Origin: an uncultured Methanomassiliicoccales archaeon
GTDB taxonomy: Archaea; Thermoplasmatota; Thermoplasmata; SG8-5
Direction: 5' to 3'
NCBI GenBank assembly: GCA_938004075.1
Contig: CALKWP010000127.1
Span: 1 to 50,588, forward strand
DNA: 50,588 bases
The notes under the pieces were generated by a model. The model was given only the letters and a program-made list of their open reading frames with translations. It was not told the origin of the DNA and did no database searches. Position numbers and translations under genes: made by a program. Below, in pieces: positions 10,501 through 50,588 of this stretch; position 1 is the first letter of the stretch, and the number at the start of each line of letters is the position of its first letter.

Positions 10501-13500
10501 ACATGGCTGAGAACCACGAGGCGCTCCTGTTCACGGCAGAGGCGACAACCGTTGTTGACACAGTTCCCCCGGTCATCGGAACCACCGGAGCTGACCTTCT
10601 CTACATCAACAACATGGGAACTTACGGCGGAACGGCTCCGCCAGTCTGGATATCCACTGAGGTATGGGATGACCACATCGCTGCCGCTGCATGGGCGATA
10701 AGAGACTACCAGCAGTGGGAAGGCACGATGTACTTCAGCGTCGACATCACCGACGATGTGAAGAACGATGCCATGCCAGCGATGTACACATGGGACGGCT
10801 CATGGTACCACATCGACGGCGCGCTCGTCACAGTGAGCGCATCCCCCTACAGCTGGGGCGATGACTTGTTCGTCATGGGTGAAGTCAACGGCGCGAGCGT
10901 CCCGGGCGACGAGCTCGGCAATGCTCTCCCAACACACTATGCGACATTCCAGCCTGACGGCACATATCAGGGAGTCTACTCTACCGAGGGCACTTTTGAT
11001 TATTCCGATGATGTGGAAGTCGTCCCGGTTGGCGGCGAGACATTCCGCGCCTACAGATACGACGAAGGCGCGGGATATATCGCGACAGCAGCAGTTTCAA
11101 CCTATGTGGCCGGCAACGACTGGGTGGTGCTGACGATTTCGCCGGTGCCAGAGGGGCAGTACGCTGTTTGCGTCTCTGCTATGGACATGGCAGGAGCGAC
11201 CGCATGGACCAATGAGACGAGTGGCAACCCGGTGATCACCGTGGATAACACACAGCCGATGCTGAACATAGCAATGGAATTCACTGGAGACCAGAACGGC
11301 AACGGCTTCCTCAACACTGGCGATTGGTTCCTCATCTGGGTGAACGTCACCGACCTGAACGAGGATGCGACCACCATGCCTATCGTAGATGCCGATGAGA
11401 AACTCCTTCCTGACCAGCCAATGGATGGTTGGACATATTACGGTCTGGGCGTATGGGAATTCACCTACATCATCCAGGGGCCCGAATTCACGACTTCTAA
11501 CATCGACGTGAGCTTCAGGGATCTTGCCGGCAACCTTATCGACATGCCTAACGCGCTTGTATACGACATCTATGGTGAGGTCGCAGTGAACTACAATGCC
11601 GGCTGGAACCTCCTTGGCATACCGGTACTCGACCCCTACCTGAACGGCGCCCCATTGGATGAGGCAAATGACCTCGCCGTTGCTGGCGCATTGATGGTCT
11701 CAAAGTGGAACTTCGCAACTCAGAGGTACATCAACTACATCCCCGGATTCCACACCCCGGCGGACCCGCAGAACTTCGCGATCGTCGAGGACGAGGCCTA
11801 CTGGGCATGGATGCCCACCGGCGGAAGTTTCGCCGTCAGTGGCCTCAACCCGGGCGGAAGGAACGTTGCGGTCGACGGCCCCGGCTGGAACATGATCTCC
11901 TACATGGACCCAGTGAATGTCGGCGATGTTGAGACCGACTGGGCGCCATATGTGAGCTGCGGACCGGTGGATGACATAGCATACTACGATGGCACCACTT
12001 TCATCCACTACATATTGCCTGGAACGGTAATGGAACTGACCCCGAGCCGCGGATACTTCGTCTGGAGCGACTTCCCGACGAACATCATGTACAATGCAGC
12101 AGCCTGGAACACCAACACCGGAATCGGATACCCGACCATACAAGCAGCCATAGACAATGCGAACCCATACGACACAATAAACGTGGAATCCGGAATCTAC
12201 TACGAGCAGCTTGTCATTACCAAGCCGCTGACCCTTCAGGGTTCGGGTTCCGGAATCTTCTCGGCAGGGATGGGAAACACTATTGACAAAACGACTCCAA
12301 CTGAAGTAACGACAATTGACGCATCTTCAAGCGGAGGACCGATAATCAACCCGGGTTTCCCTTGGGTAGGCAGCGCAATTGCCATACTGTCCAATGATGT
12401 GACCATTTCCGGATTCGAGGTCAGCAACTCGAACACAGCAGGAGTGTTCGTTTATTATGCAGAGGATTGTCACATCAGCGATGTAAGAGCCACCTACAAC
12501 AACGATGGTGTTGTCTTATTCCACAGTGATTACAATGTGGTTGACAGTTGCGAGGCATCCTCCAATCTCAACTATGGCATATGGCTGGAATTCTCATCAG
12601 ACAATGATATCATTAACAACATGCTTGATTCGAATGACCTTGGTATCAACCTATACGCGGAATCCCCAGGCTTTTGCAATTACAACACTATCCTCGGCAA
12701 CACAATTCAGAACCACGACTTTAGTGCAATATTTATTGAAGGAGATTCGAATGAGGTTTATCAGAACCGCATTTTATACAATTTCTTTGGCGTCCAGGTC
12801 TGGGGCGATTGGAACACAATCGCAAAGAACTCCTTCATCGGCAATTACCATCAAGGAGAAGACGCCTATGGAACGAGCACCTGGAACCTGCCCCTCCCGG
12901 ACGGCGGCAACTACTGGGACATCTGGACATCGCCCGATGATAACGGTGACGGCATTGTGGATGTACCGTACAATTCCTTTAGCTTCATGGACAATTTCCC
13001 CTGGACCACCGAGAACGGGTGGGAGAGCTACGTGCCGGTTGATTTCACTGTCGTAAACACAGATACTGGAGAAGGATTCGCCACTATCCAGGCAGCCATC
13101 GACCACCCCCACACCCTAGACGGCCACACCATCACGGTGGCGGCAGGCCAATACTACGAAGATGTGGTCGTTGACAAGCAGCTTACGATACAGGGGGCCG
13201 GAGCGACCTTCAGCGAGATATATCCAACGGGCGAATCGGCTTTCGATGTGCGGGCGGATTATGTCACGATAAGCGGATTCTTCATGCAAGGCAACCCCTG
13301 CATAATCGTCGGGGCTGATAGCGTCTCTCACAACCATATAACCATCACCGAAAACACTCTCAACGGCGGCCATATCTATCTTGACGGTGTCTGGGACTCA
13401 ACAATCTCGAACAACATAATCGAAGGGAGCGGCTGGGGCATTTACCTGACTGCCTACGAGTTCTATGGCACAACAACCTGCGGGAACATCCAGATAATCG

Positions 13501-38781: not shown

Positions 38782-38823
38782 TTCGTCACTCACATCATGA
38801 TCAATCGAATGCCTGGGCGGTTT

Positions 38824-39029
38824 GCGGGATAATGTAATTTGAGGTTGCATTATCCCGCCTCCGGCGAGGCATCATACGTCGCTCCCGTCAAATCTAACAA
38901 AAGATTGTTCTCGCTCCAGGTCTGCGCTTCGCTAACATACGGCTGTGTGCCCTACGACGATATAACGTTCTCATGTGCTTTGTGAATAAACGTGTTTGGC
39001 GGTTACGCCCGCCCTTGCGCCCCTCCGCT
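38824..39029 (+). repeat. Structured repeat element, copy 0 (3' portion only: hairpin 2, conserved core, variant-1 3' arm)
   Basis: An 11-bp hairpin GCGGGATAATG/CATTATCCCGC (38824-58) is followed by CTCCGGCGAGGCATCA. After that come an identical run of about 50 nt (38910-38959 = 46152-46201) and one of about 42 nt (to 39029), both shared with copy A. The copy lies immediately downstream of dphB at the compositional boundary. Confidence 0.8.
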
Positions 39030-39229
39030 TCCAACGAATTTGCTTCGCTCATTCGCCTGAATTTTCTCGCCATGCTCGAAAATGACCCCCTTTCTGCGGA
39101 AAGCCCGCATGCTCGGGGCGCCTTGAATACTTTGGGCCGATGCAATCATACTTATTTAAATTGTCCATTGGAAGGGGTGCTGTCCATCGCGAAGTCGGCA
39201 TCATAAGGTATACGCCTCCGTCTGTGAAG

Positions 39230-40135
39230 TCAGGGGTCATTTTTTCCTTCCGCATTTCCTTGAGTAATTAAGTTCCTCTCTTTTCGCCTTTTTATATACA
39301 AATTGAAAAAGGCGAACGTTTCGATAGATACCCCGATAATTATAAGACAAAAGGACAAAATATAATTACCCTCGTTGAAATACCACAACATTACCCCCAT
39401 TGTCCAAATAATTCCACCGATTATTAAATATAATATAAACAGATGGGAAACCTCTAATTTTTTTCTTTCTTGTTCAGTTGTCACCTTTATATCTTGTTTG
39501 CTTGATTTCTTACCAGGAATGTCTTTATCCTTCAGTTCTTTTAATTCTTTTATACGATATCCCCTCTGCTGTGCGAATGAAAGGAACCAATGAGTACTAG
39601 TAAATAAAATATTTCGTAATAATATGATGAGTGGAATGAATATTGCAACTAAGAACACTATAGGGGTCCAACCTCCGACAATAGGCAGTAGCCAGTATCC
39701 AATTATCACCGAGCAGAACAAACAACCATAGAAGAATATCCAAGCAATAATTGCAGACAATAACTGACCTGGAACTCTGTTGTGCTTCCCGTGTATTGTG
39801 ACGAACCTAATTATTTCGTTAAAATACTCAAGATTTGCCTCTTCATTCCCTGCGAAGAGGGATTTGTTAATGAGTTCTTTAAGGACATTAATGTCTTGAC
39901 AGGCTTCAAGTCCCGGTTCCATTGCAAGTAGTATAAAGCTATATGCGATTAGGTAACTTAACATAATCTCAAATGGATAATCCAAACCGAATAACAGAAA
40001 ATAGATTGCTGGTAGGATAAAGCCAAGAAAGAAAAGGATATAAAATGCCTTGCTTATGCGGTCTCCCTTAGTCCAGATTATTTGCGATATCTCTCTGAAA
40101 TGAGATTCATCTTCTAAAGGGTATTCCTTGTTCAT
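39230..40135 (-). CDS. Polytopic membrane protein, putative immunity partner of the Rhs toxin
   Basis: About 300 aa with at least 6 hydrophobic segments. ATG 40133-40135 overlaps the Rhs TAA by one base (TAATG), which implies translational coupling. AT-rich. The immunity role is inferred from position only. Confidence 0.6.
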   Translation of the reverse strand: MNKEYPLEDESHFREISQIIWTKGDRISKAFYILFFLGFILPAIYFLLFGLDYPFEIMLSYLIAYSFILLAMEPGLEACQDINVLKELINKSLFAGNEEANLEYFNEIIRFVTIHGKHNRVPGQLLSAIIAWIFFYGCLFCSVIIGYWLLPIVGGWTPIVFLVAIFIPLIILLRNILFTSTHWFLSFAQQRGYRIKELKELKDKDIPGKKSSKQDIKVTTEQERKKLEVSHLFILYLIIGGIIWTMGVMLWYFNEGNYILSFCLIIIGVSIETFAFFNLYIKRRKERNLITQGNAEGKNDP

Positions 40136-43100
40136 TACAAACAACCTGCTTGTCTAAGACGCCAAGCTCCATATAATCCAGAGATTAATATCCCTATCAA
40201 GGGCAATATAGTTCCCCAAGAGATAAATTTAAGTCCCATAAAAGCGCTTTTTGCTATTACCTGCCACCAAGGAAGTGATTGTATCCATTTGATACTAATC
40301 CAAACGAATATACTCAATGCAATGCCTGCAAATGCCCATATATCACTGAAAATGGCTGCGGTAATTGTACTCCATTTCCACACGGTCATTAAATTGTAAG
40401 ACAAGCTTTCTATGAAAGAAAGTTTTGCAGCAATACCAATTGCGGAAAAGAACATATTTATAAAAAACATAGACCATTTTAAAGCACATAGGCCTGCAAA
40501 ACTAAGCAATCCAGTCGGGTCCACTCGATTAACTGGATTCCATCCAACATATGCATACATATTGGGGCCATCCACCATTCCTGCCGGGTCCTGCTGCATG
40601 AACCTCCCGATGTCGGGCGAATATGCCCTGGCGCGGTAGTGGTACAGCCCGCTTTCAGCGTCATATTGCCGACCGGTGAACTGGTGCGGGTTGTAAACGA
40701 GTTCGTTGCGAACCAACGCCTCCCCGAAGGGCGTGTAGCGGTACGTGTTGACCACATTCTCGCCCGAGTCAATAAGTTCTGAAACGCTGCCCAGCCCATC
40801 ATACAGATAATAATACTTCACCCCGTCGATTGAGATGCTGATCGGATGGTCCACGAATATGAGCTTACCCCCGCCGCAACCGCTGCCGCACTTCTGGCCG
40901 CAAGCGCTGGCAGAAGGATGTGTGAATCTCACGAGCTTGTTGTCCCACAGCTCGTAGACCACACTCTCGCCGTCGTAGAGATAGGTGAGGTTGACCACTC
41001 CGGCCTTGCTGACCCTGCGCCCGTCCAGGGCGTAGCCGTATGTTGTGGCGCGGGTATCAACGAGGCTCGGGCTGGTTGAGGGGGCGCTGTTCAGCGTGAC
41101 CGGTCCTTCTCCAACCGAATTTTGCTCGTCACCGCCGCCTCCGCCCCCGACAGTGCCCACCGAGACCAGCATGTTCTGTTTTTGGCCGTTGAGGAAGGTG
41201 GATTGGTAGCCGTAGTATGTATCTCCTTCGACCATATTTCCGTTGTTGTCGTAGATGTAGGTTGTGGTGCCGGATTGCAGCAATTTGTTTTCATCGTCAT
41301 ATACTGACGTTGTAGTTTGACTGCCGCCACTTGAAATCTGGATGGTCGCAATCATGTTGTTGCGGAGGTCATACTGGTACTGTGTTTTGCTGCCGTCCGG
41401 ATAACTCACTCCGATCAGCCGGTTTTCAGCGTCGTATGCATAATTTGTGGTTGCGCCATTTGCCTCTTTTACACTTATACGGTTCGCGTTGTAATTGTAC
41501 CCGTATGTGAAACTCGAAATGATTTGCCCATTTGACTTGACATTCTCTATCTTTGTGAGTACATTCGATTTGGCATATGACTGATATATCTTTGTCCCGG
41601 TCGGATAAGTGGTCTGGACAAGTTGGCCAATGGCATCGTACACATAAGTTGTAATGCCACCGCCAGGAGCGATTACTGATTTTAAACGATTGAGGGCATC
41701 ATAGGTGTAGGTGGTGATCAATCCGAATTGGTCGGTCATTGATATTATGTTTCCATTTTCATCGTACTGGTATGTGATTATATACTGCTGAGAAAGGACA
41801 CCTTCGTCAACAAAAACCCAGGTTTCCCTAGTAACCCGGCCCAATAAGTCAAATTCTTTATTCTGGACAGAAAGTCTTGGGGGTGTGGGCATTTGGGGTC
41901 TTGGTGGGTATATGTATATTTCGTAGTTTGGCGGATAATTGTAACCCTGCCTCTCATTCTGTGTAATCTGGTATGTTATATAGACTGTAATATCGCCGGG
42001 CATTCCCATCTTGGTCACTCTGTTCAATGCATCATATGTGTATGATGTGTTCTGGTCGTTCGCATCTATATATTCAATAAGATTGCCGACCTCGTCATAG
42101 GCCCATGAGTATGTGGAACCCAATGGCGATGTTTCGCTGATTTTTCTGCCCAGCAGGTCATATCCATATTGCCATGTTGAATCTAAGTCTCCGTCATATT
42201 GACTGACGCTCACAAGGTTGCCAATGGAATCATATGAATATCTCGTGTCAGAACCAGCCGCTCCTAATTCCCTAACGCGATTTCCTAGACTATTATACTC
42301 ATAGATTGTCTCATAGTTCATCCGGTCAATGCGTTTTGTCATTCTACCTTCTGCATCATATTGATACCTGATGGCCAGGTTATAGGGGCAATATTCTTCG
42401 ATTATCCTGCCAAGTGCATCATATGTATTTGCCCAGAAGTTGCCAAGTTTATCTTGTTTCTTTATCATGTTGCCGCTGGCATCGTATGTGTAAATATCGA
42501 AAAAGCCCAGCGCATCCGTGATTTTGACAACTCTGTCCATCGCATCATATTCATAATTGGTAATTGCACCGCGCTTGTCTGTTTCTTTAATCAGATGTCC
42601 TTTCACATATTCAAAGGATTTTGTTTTAAGAAGGGCATCTCTCTCAGTTAATTTATTACCGAATACATCATAAGTGTACGTTGTGACCGCCGCATTTCTA
42701 TCAGTAAAACTAAGAAGATTTCCCATAGCATCATATGTATATGATTCAATATTATTCAACGAATCTATCGTTTGAGTCATTCTGCCAAGCGCGTCGTATG
42801 TGTATTGAGTTACGAATCCTCTTGCATCGGTCATTGAAACCTTCTGATTAATGGTGTTATATGAGAAGAATGTGTGGTAGCCCAGAGCGTCAGTTTGTTC
42901 GACGATGTTTCCATGAGCATCATATGTGTATGTAGAAATTCCACCATTCGCACTCGTTTGAGACGTCATGAGGCCATTTGAACTGAACACATATGATGAA
43001 GTATACCCTTCTGAATTGGTTAGACTCAATGGGTTGTTGTTCGCGTCATAGACATAATTGGTTTCTTCACCATTTTTATCAACGGTTTTGATTGGAATAG

Positions 43101-45792
43101 AAAGATAGAGGTTAGGTGTGGCAAAGGTGCTATACACCGTACCTGTTTTTTTGGTTAAGGGATCTTCCCTCTCTATCAGATTCCCAACGGCATCATATTT
43201 GCTTTTCCAGCTAAATCCGCGAGCGTCAGTTTCAAGTTCGGGTTTTAAATCTTTATTAAATGTGATGCTGGTTGAGGTTGTATCGGGGTTAATTATCTTT
43301 ACTGCTGCACCATTTGAATCAAATATTCTTTTTGTCGATTGAGTGTTTGCATTTAATGTCGTGGTTGTGTGACCGGGGTAAACATAAGTGGCTTCATATT
43401 CTACGTAGTACTGGGTTTTCTGTCCTGAATCAAAATAATATTCACCGACGGTGCATTTGGAAATCTTAGAGCACCAATCTGAAGTAGAAGTATATTGATA
43501 TTCTTTGTACAGGCCCAATGGGTTTATAGTCATCACCATTTTGTGTATGGTTGCTGGAGTTAGGATATTATATGAATATCTATATTCGTTGTTCATCGCA
43601 TCTTTTCGGGTTCTTAAATTTCCATTAATATCATAGGTATACGTGTTGGTCCTTCCGGCCGGATCCACTACTGATGTAATTAGATTGCCAGTATAAATCA
43701 AATTAAGATATAACCCAGAATCATCCTCTACTTTAATCAGCCTATAATTACCATCATATGACATGTGAAGTGAGTTGCCGTTTTTGTCTACTATTTCATT
43801 CAGTAAACCTTGTGAACTAAATACCTTTACGCTACCATCTGTAAATCTCAAATTGTAAAAAGTGCCAGCACTAATTATATCTATATTAACACCGGGTGGA
43901 GATGAATATGCACCATTTCCCAAGCTTTCAAATTCGTAAAAGCTTCCATCTCCTGCAATGAAATCCACAAATCCAGTTCTAAATTGTAATTTTTCACCGT
44001 AGTTGAATTGCCAACCATACCCGAATGGTCCATTAATTTCCGAGTTTAAACTATTATAAATTCGTTCCAGTTTTATTGTATGCCCTAATGCTTTGAGCTC
44101 GATATCCAGACTTGTCACCGCGAGATTGCCATTAACCTGATTGATGCCGTCCTGATACTCGTTCCAAGCTACTTTACCTTTGGAACCCACGATGTTTTTT
44201 ATTCTGGGGTCGTAGTTGCTAGACCTTTCGCCGGGAATTTCATCGTCCGATGTTCCTAAGATGCCGTCCTGACCAGCTCTTTCAAATATCATATCTTTGT
44301 CTTTGTCTTGCCAGCCATCATAGAGGCCGTCTTGGCTTGTGTCAGATAGGTAATTTGCTGTCGTGACATCATCAACAATTATTTTTGCATAATTAATATT
44401 AATCTGACCGCCGTTTGATGAAGTGAATTTAAATGGTATGGATATTGTTGTGGCAGCACTGTTTGTATAATACTTGAAGATGTATTCGTTCATTGCTCCT
44501 CGGATTGAACCCAGCCTTAATGTCGCAGTAAAGGGCATTATTGCCCTCCAATCGATGGTGCCATCATTGCCAACATCTAATTGTAAATCATTGATTGGAA
44601 GAGTTGTGCCTGATGCAGGGGTCAGTTCAATCACGGCATTTTGAATAAGGTAATTATTAAACGATGAAACAGTAAACGATAATGTTGTAATGGTGGATGG
44701 GTTGGTTGATATGCCTGTAATCGGATTGAAAGCTGTTTTTGTTAATTCAGTAACGGCATTTGTAACGGGCTGTGTGTCTTCGCTTAGATCTGTGAGCCCG
44801 TCACCGTCGCTATCCGACTGGCTTGCGTCTGCCTGGGTGTAAACACTGAAATGTTCAACATATGCCCACACATAGCCATCATCTTGGTTTATGCCAGTAT
44901 ATTCTCCATTTTCCCAATCCGTTACAACTACCCAATTATCGCCGACCTGTCTGTACATTCTCAAACATTCGCTGGTCAGCGTTGCCGGAACATTTTCAGT
45001 GATTGGCATCTTAATTATTGCTTTAAATTCGGTTGACGTATCAACGTTTATGTCAATATATTCTCCAGTTGAAACACTAAAATTACCGCTGGTTGATTCT
45101 ACGGTCGGGACAATGTTATCTTCTCCGGAATAATCGACAGCAACTGTTACTCCGAGGTCATTGTCTGTGGCGATGACATCCGGGGTCATGTCAATCGCGA
45201 AATTGTCCGTGTTGTAAATCATCGGTTCGGCATCGCTGATGTCTGGAATCAAATCACAATCAATGTCAGCGGTTAATGCTAATGAACCGGAGCGGACCCA
45301 TGAAAAAGAAACAATTCCTTCGCCCGCAACCATGTCCAGATTGGGCGCAACTGGCCACGGTGCAGCCCCACCGTATCTTGGAGATGTGAATGAAATACCA
45401 TGATCTGAACTGCCTGCATACCAGTATTTGTTATCGTGCCAGGCTTCCTCGATCCACGACACATAGATTATTCCGGTGGTCTCATCAATAGAGACCTGGG
45501 GCCAATGAGAATTTAATTCGGAATAACTAATCTGAACGGGGGAATTCCATGCGTGCCCAGGAATTTGGGAACCAATATCATTTTTATAAAATACTTCAGC
45601 TTGCGTGGATATATCATTTTTAATTAATTGGCTATAGACCATGTGAGTATTTCCATTCTCATCAATGAGCGTATCCTGCTGTATAATCATCCCCTCTGAG
45701 CCACGGGCTGCTGCCGCAGGCTGGAATACCATAGCCATCATCGTCAAAACACACAATACCGATATTGTCACGGTTAATAACTTATTTTTCAT
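40135..45792 (-). CDS. Rhs/YD-repeat polymorphic toxin (1885 aa) with a hydrophobic C-terminal tip
   Basis: The protein contains, in order:
- signal peptide MKNKLLTVTISVLCVLTMMAMVFQPAAAA
- Asp-box-like SSDHGISF
- Ca-binding-like DSDGDGLTDLSED
- dozens of YD repeats (YTYDxxGNL, YxYDAxGR...)
- Rhs core end YRARAYSPDIGRFMQQDPAGMVDGPNMYAYVGWNPVNRVDPTGL
- a C-terminal region of about 120 aa with 4 hydrophobic helices. Confidence 0.9.
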   Translation of the reverse strand: MKNKLLTVTISVLCVLTMMAMVFQPAAAARGSEGMIIQQDTLIDENGNTHMVYSQLIKNDISTQAEVFYKNDIGSQIPGHAWNSPVQISYSELNSHWPQVSIDETTGIIYVSWIEEAWHDNKYWYAGSSDHGISFTSPRYGGAAPWPVAPNLDMVAGEGIVSFSWVRSGSLALTADIDCDLIPDISDAEPMIYNTDNFAIDMTPDVIATDNDLGVTVAVDYSGEDNIVPTVESTSGNFSVSTGEYIDINVDTSTEFKAIIKMPITENVPATLTSECLRMYRQVGDNWVVVTDWENGEYTGINQDDGYVWAYVEHFSVYTQADASQSDSDGDGLTDLSEDTQPVTNAVTELTKTAFNPITGISTNPSTITTLSFTVSSFNNYLIQNAVIELTPASGTTLPINDLQLDVGNDGTIDWRAIMPFTATLRLGSIRGAMNEYIFKYYTNSAATTISIPFKFTSSNGGQININYAKIIVDDVTTANYLSDTSQDGLYDGWQDKDKDMIFERAGQDGILGTSDDEIPGERSSNYDPRIKNIVGSKGKVAWNEYQDGINQVNGNLAVTSLDIELKALGHTIKLERIYNSLNSEINGPFGYGWQFNYGEKLQFRTGFVDFIAGDGSFYEFESLGNGAYSSPPGVNIDIISAGTFYNLRFTDGSVKVFSSQGLLNEIVDKNGNSLHMSYDGNYRLIKVEDDSGLYLNLIYTGNLITSVVDPAGRTNTYTYDINGNLRTRKDAMNNEYRYSYNILTPATIHKMVMTINPLGLYKEYQYTSTSDWCSKISKCTVGEYYFDSGQKTQYYVEYEATYVYPGHTTTTLNANTQSTKRIFDSNGAAVKIINPDTTSTSITFNKDLKPELETDARGFSWKSKYDAVGNLIEREDPLTKKTGTVYSTFATPNLYLSIPIKTVDKNGEETNYVYDANNNPLSLTNSEGYTSSYVFSSNGLMTSQTSANGGISTYTYDAHGNIVEQTDALGYHTFFSYNTINQKVSMTDARGFVTQYTYDALGRMTQTIDSLNNIESYTYDAMGNLLSFTDRNAAVTTYTYDVFGNKLTERDALLKTKSFEYVKGHLIKETDKRGAITNYEYDAMDRVVKITDALGFFDIYTYDASGNMIKKQDKLGNFWANTYDALGRIIEEYCPYNLAIRYQYDAEGRMTKRIDRMNYETIYEYNSLGNRVRELGAAGSDTRYSYDSIGNLVSVSQYDGDLDSTWQYGYDLLGRKISETSPLGSTYSWAYDEVGNLIEYIDANDQNTSYTYDALNRVTKMGMPGDITVYITYQITQNERQGYNYPPNYEIYIYPPRPQMPTPPRLSVQNKEFDLLGRVTRETWVFVDEGVLSQQYIITYQYDENGNIISMTDQFGLITTYTYDALNRLKSVIAPGGGITTYVYDAIGQLVQTTYPTGTKIYQSYAKSNVLTKIENVKSNGQIISSFTYGYNYNANRISVKEANGATTNYAYDAENRLIGVSYPDGSKTQYQYDLRNNMIATIQISSGGSQTTTSVYDDENKLLQSGTTTYIYDNNGNMVEGDTYYGYQSTFLNGQKQNMLVSVGTVGGGGGGDEQNSVGEGPVTLNSAPSTSPSLVDTRATTYGYALDGRRVSKAGVVNLTYLYDGESVVYELWDNKLVRFTHPSASACGQKCGSGCGGGKLIFVDHPISISIDGVKYYYLYDGLGSVSELIDSGENVVNTYRYTPFGEALVRNELVYNPHQFTGRQYDAESGLYHYRARAYSPDIGRFMQQDPAGMVDGPNMYAYVGWNPVNRVDPTGLLSFAGLCALKWSMFFINMFFSAIGIAAKLSFIESLSYNLMTVWKWSTITAAIFSDIWAFAGIALSIFVWISIKWIQSLPWWQVIAKSAFMGLKFISWGTILPLIGILISGLYGAWRLRQAGCL

Positions 45793-45840
45793 GTTAATTC
45801 CCCGCTATTAATTTCATTGCTTGAATATTCAAACCTAGGT

Positions 45841-45861
45841 TATAAAGGTTTTGTGAGATTA
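45841..45861 (-). promoter_or_regulatory. Putative archaeal BRE/TATA promoter of cassette 1 (conserved cassette promoter motif)
   Basis: The minus strand reads ATCTCACAAAACCTTTATAACCTAGG, about 50 nt upstream of the Rhs ATG. The same CTCACAAAA + TATA arrangement recurs at 48245-48267 and 50421-50440. Confidence 0.5.
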
Positions 45862-45880
45862 CTCATATTTTCTGTACTAA

Positions 45881-46272
45881 CGACCGCCAAACACTACGGA
45901 TTATTTGCACATTAAAAACGGGCACACAGCCTTAGCCAGTAGACGCTTGCCCCAAGTGAATGCACAAGCCCGGATATAAGGCTTGTGTTCACACTCCCCG
46001 TCCCTTCGTTGTACTCGTGATTGCTCACCGTAACGTTTGGAAGATGGTGGTTCGCAACCGTGCGGTTTCCTGGATTAGCGTCATTGAGAGGACAGAAACC
46101 TCCGGCGAGGCATCACGAGGGCCTATCGTCGCATACATCAAAAAATAGCTCTCGCTCCAGGTCTGCGCTTCGCTAACATACGGCTGTGTGCCCTACGACG
46201 GTAAAACGGTATCATGTGCATATGCTCCGAAACGTGTTTGGCGGTTACGCCCGCCCTTGCGCCCCTCCGCTG
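45881..46272 (+). repeat. Structured repeat element, copy A (variant-1 5' arm, core with two hairpins, variant-1 3' arm)
   Basis: The 5' arm 45882-45950 is complementary to the 3' arm. Paired blocks are CGACCGCCAAACAC / GTGTTTGGCGGT at 46235-46, GGGCACACAGCC at 45921-32 / GGCTGTGTGCCC at 46183-94, and TGCACAT / ATGTGCA. Hairpin 1 is at 45964-45988 and hairpin 2 at 46065-46101. The conserved block GGCGAGGCATCACGAGGGCCTATCG is at 46105-46129. Confidence 0.85.
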
Positions 46273-46443
46273 GCCCCTGGCTACGCCAACCCGCCTGCTC
46301 AAGGCGCTTGGATTATTTGAAAATAATCGAAATTAATGCATTGCTAATAATCCATTCCGATGATGCCGTTCGTTATCAGGCGCACGTACACTGATGAATT
46401 GCTCTCATCCACAACGATAAGATATCCGCATCCGTCCGTGAAT

Positions 46444-46899
46444 TCAGGGGTCATGGGGTTCTTCCTCGGTTATTGATAGAATTATGGAAGGGGGATATAA
46501 TGGTGGCGGAACTCTGGCCATCATATGATTTTGAACATAACAAGAGGATAATAGTGTGAAAACATAAATTAATGAAATCCATGTAAATAAGGCGACGACA
46601 GTACTAATCACTAGTATAATTAGAGAAAGATTGGAGGCTTTATTTCTGTATACTTCATTTGATGAATAATAATGCATATTTATTCCTATACCAAAACCTC
46701 CGATTACTGTGACACTAATTATTATCAAATATGGGTGTATAATGAACGGAAGCACAAAGGGAATAAAAAGAGAAATAAGAACAATAATTAATGAAAAAGC
46801 CAGTGACATAATATCAATCCAATTAACTTGATGTTCTTCGTTATAATCGAAGCTGACAGGTTTTAATGATTTGATATCGCTCCTATTTAAAAGCGGCAT
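46444..46899 (-). CDS. Small polytopic membrane protein, putative immunity partner of the orphan Rhs tip
   Basis: ATG 46899 is preceded by GGAGGG 8 nt upstream. The ORF-track start at 46941 overlaps the upstream gene by 26 nt. There are 4 hydrophobic segments. The last codons and 25 nt of 3' flank are conserved with the 39230 gene. Confidence 0.6.
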   Translation of the reverse strand: MPLLNRSDIKSLKPVSFDYNEEHQVNWIDIMSLAFSLIIVLISLFIPFVLPFIIHPYLIIISVTVIGGFGIGINMHYYSSNEVYRNKASNLSLIILVISTVVALFTWISLIYVFTLLSSCYVQNHMMARVPPPLYPPSIILSITEEEPHDP

Positions 46900-46915
46900 A
46901 ATCTTGACCCTCCAT

Positions 46916-48103
46916 TCAACCACATGTATAGGTCGTTCCAAGGCCTTTCAAATACCACCAAAACAGGTTACACCAGGTATATGCGGTATATCCCGAATAG
47001 AAACGAATATCGCGTCCTACGCGATTTGCAACTTTGTCACATTGAGATTGGGCAGGTGTGTTTGTTTTTAATACTTTCACATCAAAATATTCCTTTGTAT
47101 CTGTAATCTTTTGAGTATAATAATTGGAAAGACCACAAAGATTAATCATTGATGCTGACCAAAGGCAATGTTGATATTTATCATTTTTTCCACCATCTGG
47201 ATCAGATGCCCCATGCGCGGTAATTCCGGCATTAACGGCACACATATTATACGCACATATAAAATAAAATAAAGTGATTGAAATAAGGCTTAACAACAAC
47301 ATTCCGCTCGGATCTACCATGTTGGTGGGGTTATTCCCGACATACGCGTACATATTCGCCCCGTCCACCATCCCGGCCGGGTCCTGCTGCATGAACCGCC
47401 CGATACTAGGCGAATATGCCCTTGCTCGGTAATGATAGAGGCCACTTTCTTTATCAAATTGTCTCCCAGTAAACTGGTACGGATTGTAAACCGTTTCCTC
47501 CTTTACCAACACACTCCCGAAAGGTGAGTACCTGTAGAAATTGACAATAGTCTCATTGGCGTCAATGATCTCAGTAACGCTGCCTAAACCGTCGTATAGA
47601 TAAAAGTACTTAACACTATCAACTATAATTTTAATGGGGTGGTCCACAAAACTGGAGGTAGTGAACCTCACTAGCATATTGTCCCACATCTCGTAAATCA
47701 CGTTCTCGCCATCGTAGAGGTATTTCATGTCCACGTGGCCGGCTTTTCCGACTCTCCTGCCATCGAGCGCGTAGCCATAGGATGTGGCCGGGGTGGTGTC
47801 GTCCTGTGGTTCAGATGGTGCTGTACTGCTCATTGTAACCGGTTCTTCTCCCGCAGACTGCTGTTCATCGCCACCGCCTCCGCCGCCAATCGTTCCGACG
47901 GATATGAGCCCGTTCACCTTGTAGCCGTCCAGGAAAGTGGATTCCGTCAGTCGATTTTTCCTTGGAGATTTATAAAAGATGTATGACTCTCCGTCATCTG
48001 TTCTGATGACGTCGTTCGAAAATGTCCAGCTCATATAAACTGATAATGTATCCTGGTTTACATGGATGTAATACCAACCACCTTCAATAATCTCAATGGT
48101 CAT
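46916..48103 (-). CDS. Orphan Rhs C-terminal module (core end plus distinct toxin tip), 395 aa
   Basis: It is homologous to the last part of the full Rhs (STFLDGYKVNGLISVGTIGGGGGGDEQ...YGYALDGRRVGKAG...YRARAYSPSIGRFMQQDPAGMVDGANMYAYVGNNPTNMVDPSGM). After DPSGM comes an unrelated Cys-rich tip of 125 aa. The N-terminal roughly 50 aa are not Rhs-like. Confidence 0.85.
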   Translation of the reverse strand: MTIEIIEGGWYYIHVNQDTLSVYMSWTFSNDVIRTDDGESYIFYKSPRKNRLTESTFLDGYKVNGLISVGTIGGGGGGDEQQSAGEEPVTMSSTAPSEPQDDTTPATSYGYALDGRRVGKAGHVDMKYLYDGENVIYEMWDNMLVRFTTSSFVDHPIKIIVDSVKYFYLYDGLGSVTEIIDANETIVNFYRYSPFGSVLVKEETVYNPYQFTGRQFDKESGLYHYRARAYSPSIGRFMQQDPAGMVDGANMYAYVGNNPTNMVDPSGMLLLSLISITLFYFICAYNMCAVNAGITAHGASDPDGGKNDKYQHCLWSASMINLCGLSNYYTQKITDTKEYFDVKVLKTNTPAQSQCDKVANRVGRDIRFYSGYTAYTWCNLFWWYLKGLGTTYTCG

Positions 48104-48311: not shown

Positions 48312-48622
48312 ACGACCGCCAAACACTACGGATTAAATGCACATTAGAAACGGGCACACAGCCTTAGCCAGTAGACGCTTGCCCCAAGTGAATGCGAAAG
48401 GCAGATAATAAGCCTTTCGTCCCTGCTCCCCGTGCCTGCGTTGTACTTGTCATCGCTCGCTGCGCTCGCAACCGTGCGGAAACCTGTCTTTACGGCGCTG
48501 GCAGGTCGGTTTCCTTCGGCGAGGCATCACGAGGGCCTATCGGCGATAATAACAAAAGATTGCTCTCGGCCCAGCTTCGCTACGGAGTGCCCTACGGAAT
48601 AACGACGAGGGATGGCCTACGA
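48312..48622 (+). repeat. Structured repeat element, copy B (variant-1 5' arm, core, variant-2 3' arm)
   Basis: The 5' 84 nt are about 96% identical to copy A. Hairpin 1 is CGAAAGGC/GCCTTTCG (48395-48419) and hairpin 2 is GGAAACC/GGTTTCC (48478-48514). The conserved 25-mer is at 48518-48542. The 3' arm (GGAGTGCCC at 48584-92, AGGGATGGC at 48608-16) differs from variant 1. Confidence 0.85.
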
Positions 48623-48970
48623 TATTTTTTGTAGCTGATCTAAAGTTATAACTCCTGTAAATACATGCTTACCATATATCACTGTTGGGGTAATTTTGAT
48701 GCCTTTTAATTTAGCATGTATATTGTCCCAAAAACTTGCCTTATCATAAATTACTAATTTCAAACCCTGGTGTTTCGCGAAATCCTCAATGAGTTTCTTT
48801 ACCTTGACTTCATCATCGGATAGCCATTTGTGGATGGAAGTAATGAGTTGTTCATTATATCCGCCGATGCTGCGACGATTGCGAACTTCTTTGATATGTT
48901 CTAAAGGTCGTGTATCTGTCTGGATGTGTTTTTTTGTATGCAGAAACAATTCAATCTTTTTTGGTATCAT
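48617..48970 (-). CDS. Small hypothetical protein (possible thioredoxin-like fold without CxxC)
   Basis: 117-aa AT-rich ORF. The C-terminal LKLVIYDKASFWDNIHAKLKGIKITPTVIYGKHVF resembles the beta-alpha-beta...PT..beta layout of glutaredoxin/thioredoxin-fold proteins but has no redox cysteines. The fold assignment is weak. Confidence 0.5.
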   Translation of the reverse strand: MIPKKIELFLHTKKHIQTDTRPLEHIKEVRNRRSIGGYNEQLITSIHKWLSDDEVKVKKLIEDFAKHQGLKLVIYDKASFWDNIHAKLKGIKITPTVIYGKHVFTGVITLDQLQKIS

Positions 48971-49034
48971 TCATCGCCCTCATAAATAAAGGAAAAGGAG
49001 GGCGATAGGGATATATTTTCGCCCTCATTTAAGA

Positions 49035-50336
49035 TTACAGTCCTATACCGCAGAAAGCAGGATTGTAGCAAAACAGGTTATTTGCACAACACGGCTCGCT
49101 CGGATCGCTTGTATCTAATAGGGTGGCTACAATTTTTCCACTTTCTATTCTTGAACCCATCGCCTCCCAACCGTAATAGGTTCCAATGTTTGGTTGCCCG
49201 GAGTCAATAATTGCTGTTATTTCAGTTTCATTGTTTATTGAGTCGTAGTGCGTAAAAGCATAATTTCCTGGGCTATATATAGAATACTGGAAGAACTGGT
49301 TTAATTCACCATTATTGACCAGGAACGTTGTCAGGAATCGATTGTTCTCTGGTGTTATTGTTATTACACCATTATAATTTATCTCAAGAATACTGTACTC
49401 GAAATGTTGTCTTGTGCTGAGGATCTCAAGAGTTGCCTGTACATACTGTCCTTCGTAGTCTGTAACGGTAAATTGCTCCACTCTTTTGTGCCCATTTTCA
49501 GAAATTATTGTCGAACTAGCCACAAAATCCGATTGTTGGGTATGATCCGCACCCCACATAGAAAATTCATTCGTGTATGGGTTCAGCGAGAAACCTATCT
49601 CGGGCGTTGTGATAACCTTAATCATAATTGTTTGGGAAGCAAGGTCACTCTGCCTCGTTGCACTAAGATAAAATACGGGATTTGTGGTTGTATCAAGTGG
49701 TATTATTGCACTCTCACTCAACTGCACGTTACCTCCTGGTACCGCAGTAACTATTGTTGGCGGCAGGCCTCCAGCAAAGCCCCATCCTTCTGGTATTGTT
49801 GATTCATCTACAGATACAGTGAATACATCTCCAAAGAGCATTTCATTTTTTAGAAAGACTGGCACACTAATTGAAGTTCCCGGTGTTGCTCCAACCGCAA
49901 TCAAACATCTGTGAAATTCATTGTTGTTTTCATCAACTTCCGTTATAAGATTGGTAGTATCAGCAATTGCCTCAAAATTTACCTGGTGTGTGTTAAGGGC
50001 AACAATGGTAGTTTCAATTGCTTTTATTTCTCCTGCTCTAATTGGCGGCTCTACCCATAATTGATATGTTTCAGTTGCCTCTTGCCAAAAGCCAGATAGT
50101 TCTGCATAATGAAGCTCAGCCCAAAATCCATGTTGCACCGATGCTTCACCAATATTCTCCACTGTTACAGTAACCGGTAGAGAATCACCCGTTTCTACGG
50201 GATACACCCAACCAATTCCCCTCACAATTAGGTCTGGTTGTCCTTGTTTTGCCTGAACACTTGATGGTAGAACCATCATTCCACTCAAAAAAACCATGCT
50301 CACAATTATTATTGCTCCAATTCGTGTTTTCTCCAT
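49035..50336 (-). CDS. Secreted CARDB-like domain protein with a Cys-rich C-terminus
   Basis: Signal peptide MEKTRIGAIIIVSMVFLSGMMVLPSSVQA. PDLIVRGIGWVYPVETGDSLPVTVTVENIGEAS matches the CARDB-type motif DL.V......G....V.V.N.G. The C-terminus is EPCCANNLFCYNPAFCGIGL. Confidence 0.7.
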   Translation of the reverse strand: MEKTRIGAIIIVSMVFLSGMMVLPSSVQAKQGQPDLIVRGIGWVYPVETGDSLPVTVTVENIGEASVQHGFWAELHYAELSGFWQEATETYQLWVEPPIRAGEIKAIETTIVALNTHQVNFEAIADTTNLITEVDENNNEFHRCLIAVGATPGTSISVPVFLKNEMLFGDVFTVSVDESTIPEGWGFAGGLPPTIVTAVPGGNVQLSESAIIPLDTTTNPVFYLSATRQSDLASQTIMIKVITTPEIGFSLNPYTNEFSMWGADHTQQSDFVASSTIISENGHKRVEQFTVTDYEGQYVQATLEILSTRQHFEYSILEINYNGVITITPENNRFLTTFLVNNGELNQFFQYSIYSPGNYAFTHYDSINNETEITAIIDSGQPNIGTYYGWEAMGSRIESGKIVATLLDTSDPSEPCCANNLFCYNPAFCGIGL

Positions 50337-50481: not shown

Positions 50482-50588
50482 ACGACAGCCATCCCTTAAC
50501 CGTTTCGTATTAACCGGGCACTCCTCCGCTACACCAAGTGAATGCGAAAGGCAGGATTTAAGCTTTTCGTCCATGCTCCCCGTGTCTG
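50482..50588 (+). repeat. Structured repeat element, copy C (variant-2 5' arm plus start of core; cut by window end)
   Basis: GCCATCCCT (50488-96) and GGGCACTCC (50516-24) are exact complements of copy B 3' arm blocks. They are followed by the conserved CCAAGTGAATGC and hairpin 1 CGAAAGGC/GCTTTTCG (50545-69), which has one G-T pair on the + strand. Confidence 0.8.

Follow-up and report, generated by a model that had tools for sequence, protein, structure and literature searches.

Zhang et al. (2012, PMC3482391) described polymorphic toxins with RHS repeats, cassettes and immunity genes in Methanosarcina acetivorans and remarked on their rarity in archaea. Toxins of this kind were later predicted in many archaea (Makarova et al., 2019); according to PMC8416519, which cites this work, none of them has been characterised, and the commonest moieties of archaeal polymorphic toxins are DNases and RNases. 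Two hydrophobic Rhs tips are also relevant. In Tse5, the encapsulated C-terminal fragment reaches the membrane from the periplasm and opens ion-selective pores in it (PMC10684867), and the proteobacterial Tox-WTIP tip consists of two hydrophobic helices with the motifs RxxR and Wx[ST]IP and has no assigned immunity protein (PMC3482391). Here, we analyzed a 50,588 nt stretch of DNA (contig CALKWP010000127.1, in the following the window), in which an earlier reading of the letters, referred to below as the preliminary description, had picked out an Rhs/YD-repeat gene and the gene behind it. Both open reading frames (ORFs) are encoded on the minus strand, the Rhs protein of 1885 aa at 40135-45792 and its partner of 301 aa at 39230-40135, and the sequence TAATG joins the stop codon of the first to the ATG of the second. 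With a probability of about 0.62, this locus is a functional archaeal polymorphic-toxin unit with a membrane-acting tip and a membrane immunity partner.

The full-length Rhs/YD-repeat protein (40135..45792; all features given below are on the minus strand unless stated otherwise) was assigned by matches to Pfam, NCBIfam and the PDB. DUF6531, the plug-type domain of Rhs N-terminal regions (aa 548-621, 43930..44151; Pfam PF20148, E 4.2e-11, above the cut-off), is followed by the YD-repeat shell (aa ~622-1685, 40738..43929), in which Pfam RHS_repeat (PF05593) matched 14 stretches (E 2.4e-90) and TIGR01643 (YD_repeat_2x) eight (E 2.5e-70), in addition to a match to NF041261. The top PDB sequence matches are solved Rhs proteins (8h8b, E 2.4e-57; Tse5, 8cp6, E 2.1e-43), and the shells 8h8b, 8qja, 7q97 and 8cp6 were matched at E 1e-43 to 1e-57. 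Behind the shell lies the Rhs-associated core, the aspartyl autoprotease plug (aa 1686-1762, 40507..40737; TIGR03696, E 1.6e-25), which ends at L1762 with PVNRVDPTGL (aa 1753-1762). The core end was aligned residue by residue with 8h8a/8h8b, TccC3 and Tse5, and D1735 and D1758, 23 residues apart, occupy the conserved Asp positions of the solved cores. In the 8h8b construct, in which the toxin is retained, APTG stands in place of the DPTG of 8h8a. By homology, the core is expected to cut after DPTGL. Homology likewise identifies the protein as an Rhs cocoon composed of DUF6531 plug, YD shell and protease core, and a chance assignment is dismissed because the ORF spans 5.6 kb and the family E-values reach 1e-90. 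The repeats and the canonical core end named in the preliminary description were thus recovered, the latter with both catalytic Asp residues. Neither a PAAR nor a VgrG-related domain was found in the Rhs protein with Pfam and NCBIfam, and no type VI secretion system (T6SS) genes were found in the window.

The protein starts with a signal-peptide-like leader (aa 1-29, 45706..45792), MKNKLLTVTISVLCVLTMMAMVFQPAAAA, composed of an n-region rich in Lys, an h-region of 19 residues (Kyte-Doolittle 2.44) and a c-region of the AxA type; the cut is predicted after AAA, directly in front of RG. The leader is kept in six of the seven close homologues (P0003-P0005, P0007-P0009), the N-terminus being missing from the seventh, and it points to Sec-type export of the Rhs protein. 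Between leader and DUF6531 lies a clade-specific region (aa 30-547, 44152..45705), which is 51-68% identical in the seven homologues; no Pfam family was obtained for the N-terminal 547 residues. This region harbors the Asp-box-like sequence SSDHGISF (aa 128-135), for which no BNR match was found in Pfam, and the Ca-binding-like DxDxDG sequence DSDGDG (aa 327-332), around which D327, D329, D331, G332, D335, E338 and D339 are invariant across the eight clade members. The AlphaFold2 model of the N-terminal 560 aa, calculated from a shallow alignment (predicted local distance difference test, pLDDT, 45), was confident for ~aa 345-478 only. This part resembles a jelly-roll-like beta-sandwich, for which Foldseek returned a weak match to the carbohydrate-binding jelly-roll of BcsB (E 2e-4). 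The signal peptide, the Asp-box-like element and the Ca-binding-like motif had all been noted previously and stand, the Asp-box-like element as a motif only.

The C-terminal tip (aa 1763-1885, 40138..40506) comprises 123 aa with 10 Trp, many Ser, Ala and Gly residues, a net charge of +6 and three to four hydrophobic windows. This agrees with the hydrophobic, helical tip of about 120 aa without enzymatic motif that had been proposed: no match was obtained in Pfam (at E up to 10), NCBIfam or the PDB, and against all PDB chains neither phmmer (to E 10) nor a profile search (to E 1) returned a match. A word-indexed protein search gave no relatives. With an exhaustive HMMER search of 1.84e9 representatives, five homologues of 30-35% identity were recovered (E 6e-10 to 9e-4), one of which ends a 2451-aa Rhs protein and another a 388-aa orphan fragment, the other three being short ORFs of ~110 aa. 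We regard the tip as a new, Trp-rich and predicted all-helical family with a TxWxW motif and two conserved cysteines, Cys1769 and Cys1884. F1782, G1786, T1803, W1805 and C1884 are invariant in the family alignment; W1807 is invariant in the six-row alignment and replaced in the seventh sequence of a larger one. C1769 is present in every member that reaches that far, and W1842 is among the conserved residues.

The partner gene (39230..40135), whose start overlaps the Rhs stop, encodes a predicted immunity protein with six transmembrane (TM) helices. A polytopic membrane protein with the TAATG overlap had been noted at this position, and six hydrophobic helices were indeed found. Its loops are rich in Lys and Arg and the outer loops are very short; by the positive-inside rule, an N-in/C-in topology is predicted. 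No match was obtained for the partner family in Pfam or the PDB. Its conserved core (aa 1-~205, 39521..40135), with four TM helices and a long loop, is homologous to genes that follow remote tips. The C-terminal extension (39233..39520), a Lys-rich linker with two TM helices, is lineage-specific, and these last ~95 residues are absent from the homologues in the loci L014 and L015. The extension may be a remnant of, or a fusion with, a resident locus. In a search of 5.8e9 proteins, one close homologue of the partner was found (P0002, 83% identity), encoded on a 3.5-kb metagenomic contig (L006) straight after an Rhs C-terminus with the same tip.

In each of the remote-tip loci analysed (L014, L015, L016), a gene homologous to the partner gene comes next. 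In L014, the 2451-aa Rhs gene is followed by a 208-aa homologue of partner aa 15-198 (E 7e-18); the homologue behind the tip in L015 and L016 has 217 aa (E 5e-20). L015 contains a second ORF of core remnant plus tip and a second partner homologue, i.e. two tip-partner pairs in tandem. Overall, the remote homologues cover partner aa ~6-213, with W21, G24, D25, E87, E98 and Y104 conserved. Comparison of the window with L006 delimited a recombination block of 1080 nt (39526..40605) consisting of core end, tip and partner core: this block is 98.4% identical at the DNA level, compared to 65% for the Rhs shell and 72% for the C-terminal third of the partner gene, which lies outside the exchanged block. 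Within it, the tip reaches 98.1% and partner aa 1-197 98.3%, and identity switches sharply at the core/tip border. A nucleotide identity of 98% between flanks this divergent cannot be explained by purifying selection. Tip and partner core were thus transferred jointly, in keeping with a module of cognate toxin and immunity protein. The suggested toxin-immunity pairing is thus supported by genomic criteria, as partner homologues follow the tips in L006, L014, L015 and L016 and both genes were co-transferred in the ~98% block. In the remote relatives (L015 370-2746 and L016), tip-partner pairs are found in tandem as decayed orphans. In one of these, the Rhs core remnant is cut off by a stop codon from a Gly/Pro-rich linker, to which the tip is attached; no such linker is present in the window and L006, where the tip starts right behind the cleavage site.

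Within the clade, leader, N-terminal region and shell are 50-68% identical and the tips are unrelated. Four unrelated tips were found on this scaffold family: the window tip, the tip of an orphan fragment in the window, and those of P0003 and P0004. The tip of P0004 comprises 88 aa, with many Trp and Cys residues and TM segments, and the protein encoded next has 166 aa and two to three TM helices. P0003 ends in a soluble tip of 158 aa, and its neighbour of 170 aa has a single TM helix at the N-terminus. All partners seen in the clade are membrane-anchored, in agreement with toxins whose site of action is at or in the membrane, reached from the outside.

Based on these observations, we propose that the Sec-type leader would export the Rhs protein, and that the clade-specific N-terminal region, with its Ca-binding-like motif and jelly-roll, would hold it at a cell surface or bind a target. 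The 123-residue helical tip would be cut off and carried inside the shell. Upon contact with a neighbour lacking an outer membrane, it would partition into the exposed cytoplasmic membrane and damage it, most likely through an ion-conducting pore or a proteolipid defect that collapses the membrane potential, as for Tse5-CT; insertion and pore formation are put forward by this analogy. The marginal hydrophobicity of the tip could allow passage through SecYEG without trapping in the membrane of the producer, and the conserved cysteines at its two ends may form a disulfide outside the cell. The co-translated partner, an almost fully buried six-helix protein with both termini inside, would bind or exclude the tip in the plane of the membrane and thereby shield the producer and its kin, and tip and partner core would travel together as a recombination module between Rhs scaffolds.

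Several points weigh against this proposal. Toxicity, pore formation, cleavage and protection are steps that we only infer, and likeness of the tip to Tse5-CT, Tox-WTIP, colicins or any Pfam or PDB entry was undetectable. Structure prediction, which had been suggested as a check of the tip, gave an all-helical model with five helices from the six-row alignment, but at low confidence (pLDDT 53). The remote tip homologues come from hosts with a GC content of 59-61%, and the host of the window itself, an archaeon, probably belongs to the Thermoplasmatota, a phylum taken from the names of Rhs homologues only. In addition, the hydrophobic C-terminus of a Sec substrate could stay in the membrane of the producer instead. 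On a crude, position-independent scale, Hessa sums of +1.9 to +2.9 were obtained for the helices of the tip, compared to -0.1 to -2.3 for those of the partner and -2.3 for the leader, which suggests that the tip may be able to pass the Sec channel and to insert later.

If the C-terminus did stay behind, it would act as a membrane anchor, displaying a teneurin-like YD shell on the producer surface as an adhesin or recognition protein, with the partner as co-anchor or assembly factor. The combination of a Sec-type leader and a hydrophobic C-terminus on one protein speaks for such an arrangement, C-terminal membrane anchoring of surface proteins is common in archaea, and YD shells are known from non-toxin adhesion proteins, teneurin-like chains being among the PDB matches. 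We nevertheless regard an anchor as distinctly unlikely, since the intact autoprotease motif directly in front of the tip would sever it, the tip family also occurs in orphan fragments and in tandem tip-partner cassettes without a shell, tips are swapped between scaffolds, and by score the tip helices are poor stop-transfer segments compared with the partner helices. Alternatively, the tip might be a membrane toxin that forms no pore, for example one blocking an essential membrane protein or a lipid carrier, with the partner as decoy or competitor. The conservation of specific tip residues beyond generic hydrophobicity (F1782, G1786, T1803, W1805, W1807, W1842, C1884) and of polar residues in the partner family (the set W21, G24, D25, E87, E98, Y104) would be in line with such a toxin, but no enzymatic or known binding motif was found in the tip, and its size and composition are like those of membrane-active peptides; we consider this version unlikely. 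The partner could also be an export, insertion or maturation factor for the hydrophobic tip and not an immunity protein. Effectors with hydrophobic regions often depend on helpers of their own, as T6SS Rhs effectors do on Eag chaperones, and the gene pair is strictly coupled. However, the helpers known so far are soluble proteins that bind helices at the N-terminus, the partner is also found behind orphan tips without shell or leader, which is the pattern of an immunity gene, and tip and partner core stay joined in the recombination block, as cognate specificity would require, so that a helper role appears very improbable.

A polymorphic-toxin unit in an archaeon further presupposes that the island, the low-GC region that carries the locus, is archaeal. 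At ~39 kb, the GC content drops from ~0.57 to ~0.42 and remains at this level up to the window end, and one close homologue (P0006, on a 3.9-kb contig) is labelled as a Peribacteraceae protein from a metagenome-assembled genome (MAG), both of which could be taken to mean that bacterial DNA was mis-assembled onto an archaeal contig. Against this, a spacer element described below lies beside dph5 (38795-39133) at the same junction in independent JGI and Logan assemblies of relatives, homologous Rhs loci stand beside archaeal genes on three other contigs (L40e, GyrB and IleRS in L009; PolB and RadA-like in L007), other arrays with the spacer element adjoin PolD, aEF-1alpha and archaeal DnaG, the Rhs promoter region looks archaeal, and the nearest bacterial Rhs proteins are just ~27% identical. 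A mis-assembly is therefore scarcely credible, and the bacterial mis-join that the preliminary description had named as a refutation is unlikely, as the junction between dph5 and the array recurs in independent assemblies of close relatives. The archaeal host is likewise supported by hallmark genes adjoining the island, encoding RaSEA (34784-35779), Trm5b (36973-37977) and Dph5 (37987-38781). In the search of 5.8e9 proteins, seven close Rhs relatives of 50-60% identity were obtained, two of them bearing Thermoplasmatota/Thermoplasmata MAG names, and the next matches were bacterial Rhs proteins of 24-31% identity; a scan of GTDB representative genomes with the Rhs protein gave only bacterial MAG Rhs genes, 27-29% identical. 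Because the close relatives are archaeal-linked and bacterial Rhs proteins only 24-31% identical, we consider the proteins an archaeal Rhs clade and not a recent bacterial import. Exact-sequence look-ups of the Rhs protein, Dph5 and the orphan fragment gave zero matches.

In relatives whose Dph5 is at least 90% identical, gene order is conserved as far as the dph5 end, and the genes beyond are different ones (PIN and others), from which it follows that the Rhs island is accessory. Integration at a tRNA gene was ruled out, the sole tRNA gene (30435-30511) being 8 kb away. The Rhs gene is preceded by a putative archaeal promoter/leader (45793..45851), read from the sequence, with a BRE/TATA-like sequence, CAAAACCTTTATAACC, at 45851-45836 and a Shine-Dalgarno-like GGGG stretch ~8 nt ahead of the ATG at 45792. 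This promoter-like block recurs upstream of the orphan cassette (repeat D12).

The orphan cassette consists of an Rhs C-terminal fragment of 395 aa (46916..48103), which comprises the end of a shell, a core (DPSGM; TIGR03696, E 6.5e-29) and a different tip, and of a 165-aa membrane protein with two to three TM helices (46444..46941), which overlaps the end of the fragment and is the predicted immunity protein of the orphan tip. The tip itself contains one TM helix and DUF6973, at 27.4 bits versus a cut-off of 27 when scanned alone; no mention of DUF6973 was found in the literature searched, and no family was assigned to the 165-aa protein. With this second fragment and membrane ORF at 46444-48103, the embedding of the locus in a cassette array, as previously described, is borne out. 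The orphan cassette is located upstream of the full-length Rhs gene, compared with the usual downstream place in bacteria, and forms an array unit of its own, with its own copy of the spacer element and its own promoter-like block.

The spacer element, a multi-helix structure of ~210 nt with the core GATGCCTCGCCGGAG...GCATTCACTTGG, lies ahead of each cassette of the island and of comparable arrays on archaeal metagenome contigs. Copies were located between the orphan and Rhs cassettes (45880..46330, core 46160-45952), upstream of the orphan cassette (48312..48600), as a partial copy at the window edge upstream of a CARDB cassette (50511..50588), and as a terminal, shortened variant between the partner gene and dph5 (38795..39133), the latter at the same junction in related genomes. 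In the dph5-side copy (38795-38913), GATGCCTCGCCGGAG is followed by a different hairpin, GCGGGATAATG..CATTATCCCGC, which covaries with the copy at the same place in a related genome (L010 11590-11708; together, the counterparts at the L010 junction are 11590-11708 and 13226-13396). As the terminal variant is shared at the same place with L010, the array seems to be anchored at the 3' end of dph5 in this lineage. Six copies are present in L007, and several separate the unrelated cassettes that lie downstream of dph5 in L010-L013. When metagenomes were scanned for the pattern, 25 more loci were obtained (L017-L041) with up to nine copies in 8 kb, some of which adjoin LonB or the PolD, aEF-1alpha and DnaG genes mentioned above.

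Structure statistics were calculated for 54 distinct copies, with slid partners and 500 shuffles as controls. The consensus comprises 26 pairs, 16 of which show compensatory changes, and 98.6% of cells are paired versus 36-46% when partners were slid. The covariation score of 0.403 exceeds that of the slid controls (at most 0.107) and was reached in none of the 500 shuffles. A U-G pair in 52 of the 54 copies marks the cassette-sense strand as the folded strand. The element contains long invariant single-stranded stretches, a further covarying helix lies ~45 nt upstream of the structure, and 6-140 nt separate its end from the next ORF. Searches of the island against Rfam gave no match even at E up to 1. 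An identity as a classical attC or integron site was considered and not adopted; the element is multi-helical, longer than attC and not a single hairpin. Readings as group II intron, omega/bridge RNA or C/D-box RNA were considered and found no support. Possible roles of the element are those of a recombination site, a leader or a processing RNA.

The cassettes of these arrays encode mostly unknown proteins with N-terminal TM segments, as well as PIN, HicB, MazE, DUF4258, SLATT_5, CARDB, fn3 and beta-helix proteins. At the site downstream of dph5, the genomes with an at least 90% identical Dph5 (L010 10889-18492; L011-L013) carry different cassettes with the same spacer between them, among these PIN with a small ORF, small membrane proteins, an Rce1-like protein and an ABC/FtsX set. 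A gene for an IS200-type Y1 transposase was found ~1.4 kb past the last spacer copy among L010-L013, and an IS110 transposase gene inside the L007 array; no IntI integrase was seen in the array flanks, most of these contigs being short or incomplete. It is conceivable, and we suggest it tentatively, that the Rhs-immunity unit is one cassette of an undescribed archaeal gene-cassette system, in which co-oriented cassettes for Rhs toxins, orphan tips, toxin-antitoxin modules and small secreted or membrane proteins would share the ~210-nt element for shuffling and/or as a common leader or processing RNA. Such a system, with arrays beside dph5 here and elsewhere in related metagenomic archaea, would be a functional analogue of integron attC sites and structurally unrelated to them.

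Two further regions of the window were noted. One is another cassette (48617-50336), with genes for a secreted CARDB protein of 433 aa, the C-terminus of which is rich in Cys (...CCANNLFCYNPAFCGIGL), and for a thioredoxin-like protein of 117 aa behind it. The two may be a pair in their own right, of the secreted peptide or redox type; a CARDB homologue of equal length, followed by a 169-aa gene, is part of the L007 array (L007 19777-21628). On the plus strand, four very large co-oriented ORFs of 2037, 2117, 889 and 3062 aa (788-25739) take up half of the window. Two of them contain Ig-like (Big_5, Big_13) and NosD/beta-helix domains, two are without a Pfam family, and they presumably belong to the core genome of the host (GC ~0.57) and encode giant surface proteins.

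Predictions of polymorphic toxins in archaea go back more than ten years, but according to PMC8416519 none has been characterised, and the window offers a compact locus in which they can be tested. Residues for mutation are the TxWxW motif and the terminal Cys pair in the tip and W21, G24, D25, E87, E98 and Y104 in the partner, and the limits of the functional module are marked by a natural recombination event. As the cytoplasmic membrane is exposed wherever an outer membrane is missing, archaea may prefer a design in which cocoons are secreted via Sec, the tips act on membranes and the immunity proteins are embedded in them. The spacer element and its arrays may represent a new archaeal platform for gene shuffling or regulation.

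Compared with described systems, the array resembles chromosomal integron cassette arrays, including those of archaeal integrons (Ghaly et al., 2022, PMC9668308), in its co-oriented, short and mostly unknown secreted, membrane or toxin-antitoxin cassettes with a repeated structured site and in its variability between related genomes. Unlike the single hairpin of attC, its repeat is a ~210-nt multi-helix structure directly upstream of each ORF. With the archaeal Rhs loci known by comparative genomics prediction (PMC3482391; PMC8416519), the locus shares the archaeal host, RHS shell, variable tips, standalone cassettes and adjacent immunity genes. It differs from those of PMC3482391 in forming a separate clade with seven relatives of 50-60% identity and its own leader and N-terminal region of ~520 aa, and from the nuclease moieties that are commonest according to PMC8416519 in carrying a membrane-helix module as tip. 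Tox-WTIP is likewise a small, non-enzymatic and highly hydrophobic C-terminal module on RHS-repeat toxins, whereas the window tip has four to five helices, no RxxR motif and a conserved partner; its WGTILP sequence (aa 1859-1864) has one residue more than Wx[ST]IP and is not conserved in the family.

The Tse5 (PA2684)-Tsi5 pair of Pseudomonas aeruginosa combines an Rhs cocoon, aspartyl self-cleavage and a hydrophobic fragment of ~15 kDa that inserts from outside and depolarises the membrane (PMC10684867). The shells of Tse5 and the window protein are homologous (8cp6, E 2.1e-43). Tse5 is delivered by the T6SS, whereas the window protein starts with a Sec-type leader and gave no match to PAAR or VgrG-related domains; its partner is a six-helix protein of 301 aa from a new family. 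The PDB-chain search gave no match between the tip and Tse5-CT, a weak negative, as the presence of the Tse5-CT chain among the sequences was unconfirmed. WapA of Bacillus subtilis is a Sec-dependent, cell-wall-associated YD-repeat toxin of the contact-dependent type, whose tRNase tips act in the cytoplasm and are countered by soluble immunity proteins. By this description, WapA and the window protein have in common a signal peptide, a cell without an outer membrane, a variable C-terminal toxin and an adjacent immunity gene; the window locus differs in its archaeal host and in that its tip and its partner are both membrane proteins. No link between Thermoplasmatota and Rhs toxins was found in the literature searched. 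The preliminary description had singled out an archaeal, Sec-dependent Rhs system in a cassette array as deserving attention. The window does hold a full archaeal Rhs locus, but the novelty implied was overstated, as such toxins were reported in M. acetivorans in 2012 (PMC3482391) and predicted in many archaea in 2019 (cited in PMC8416519) and a pore-forming tip is known from Tse5 (PMC10684867). New here are the archaeal clade, the tip family, the partner family and the documented exchange of the module.

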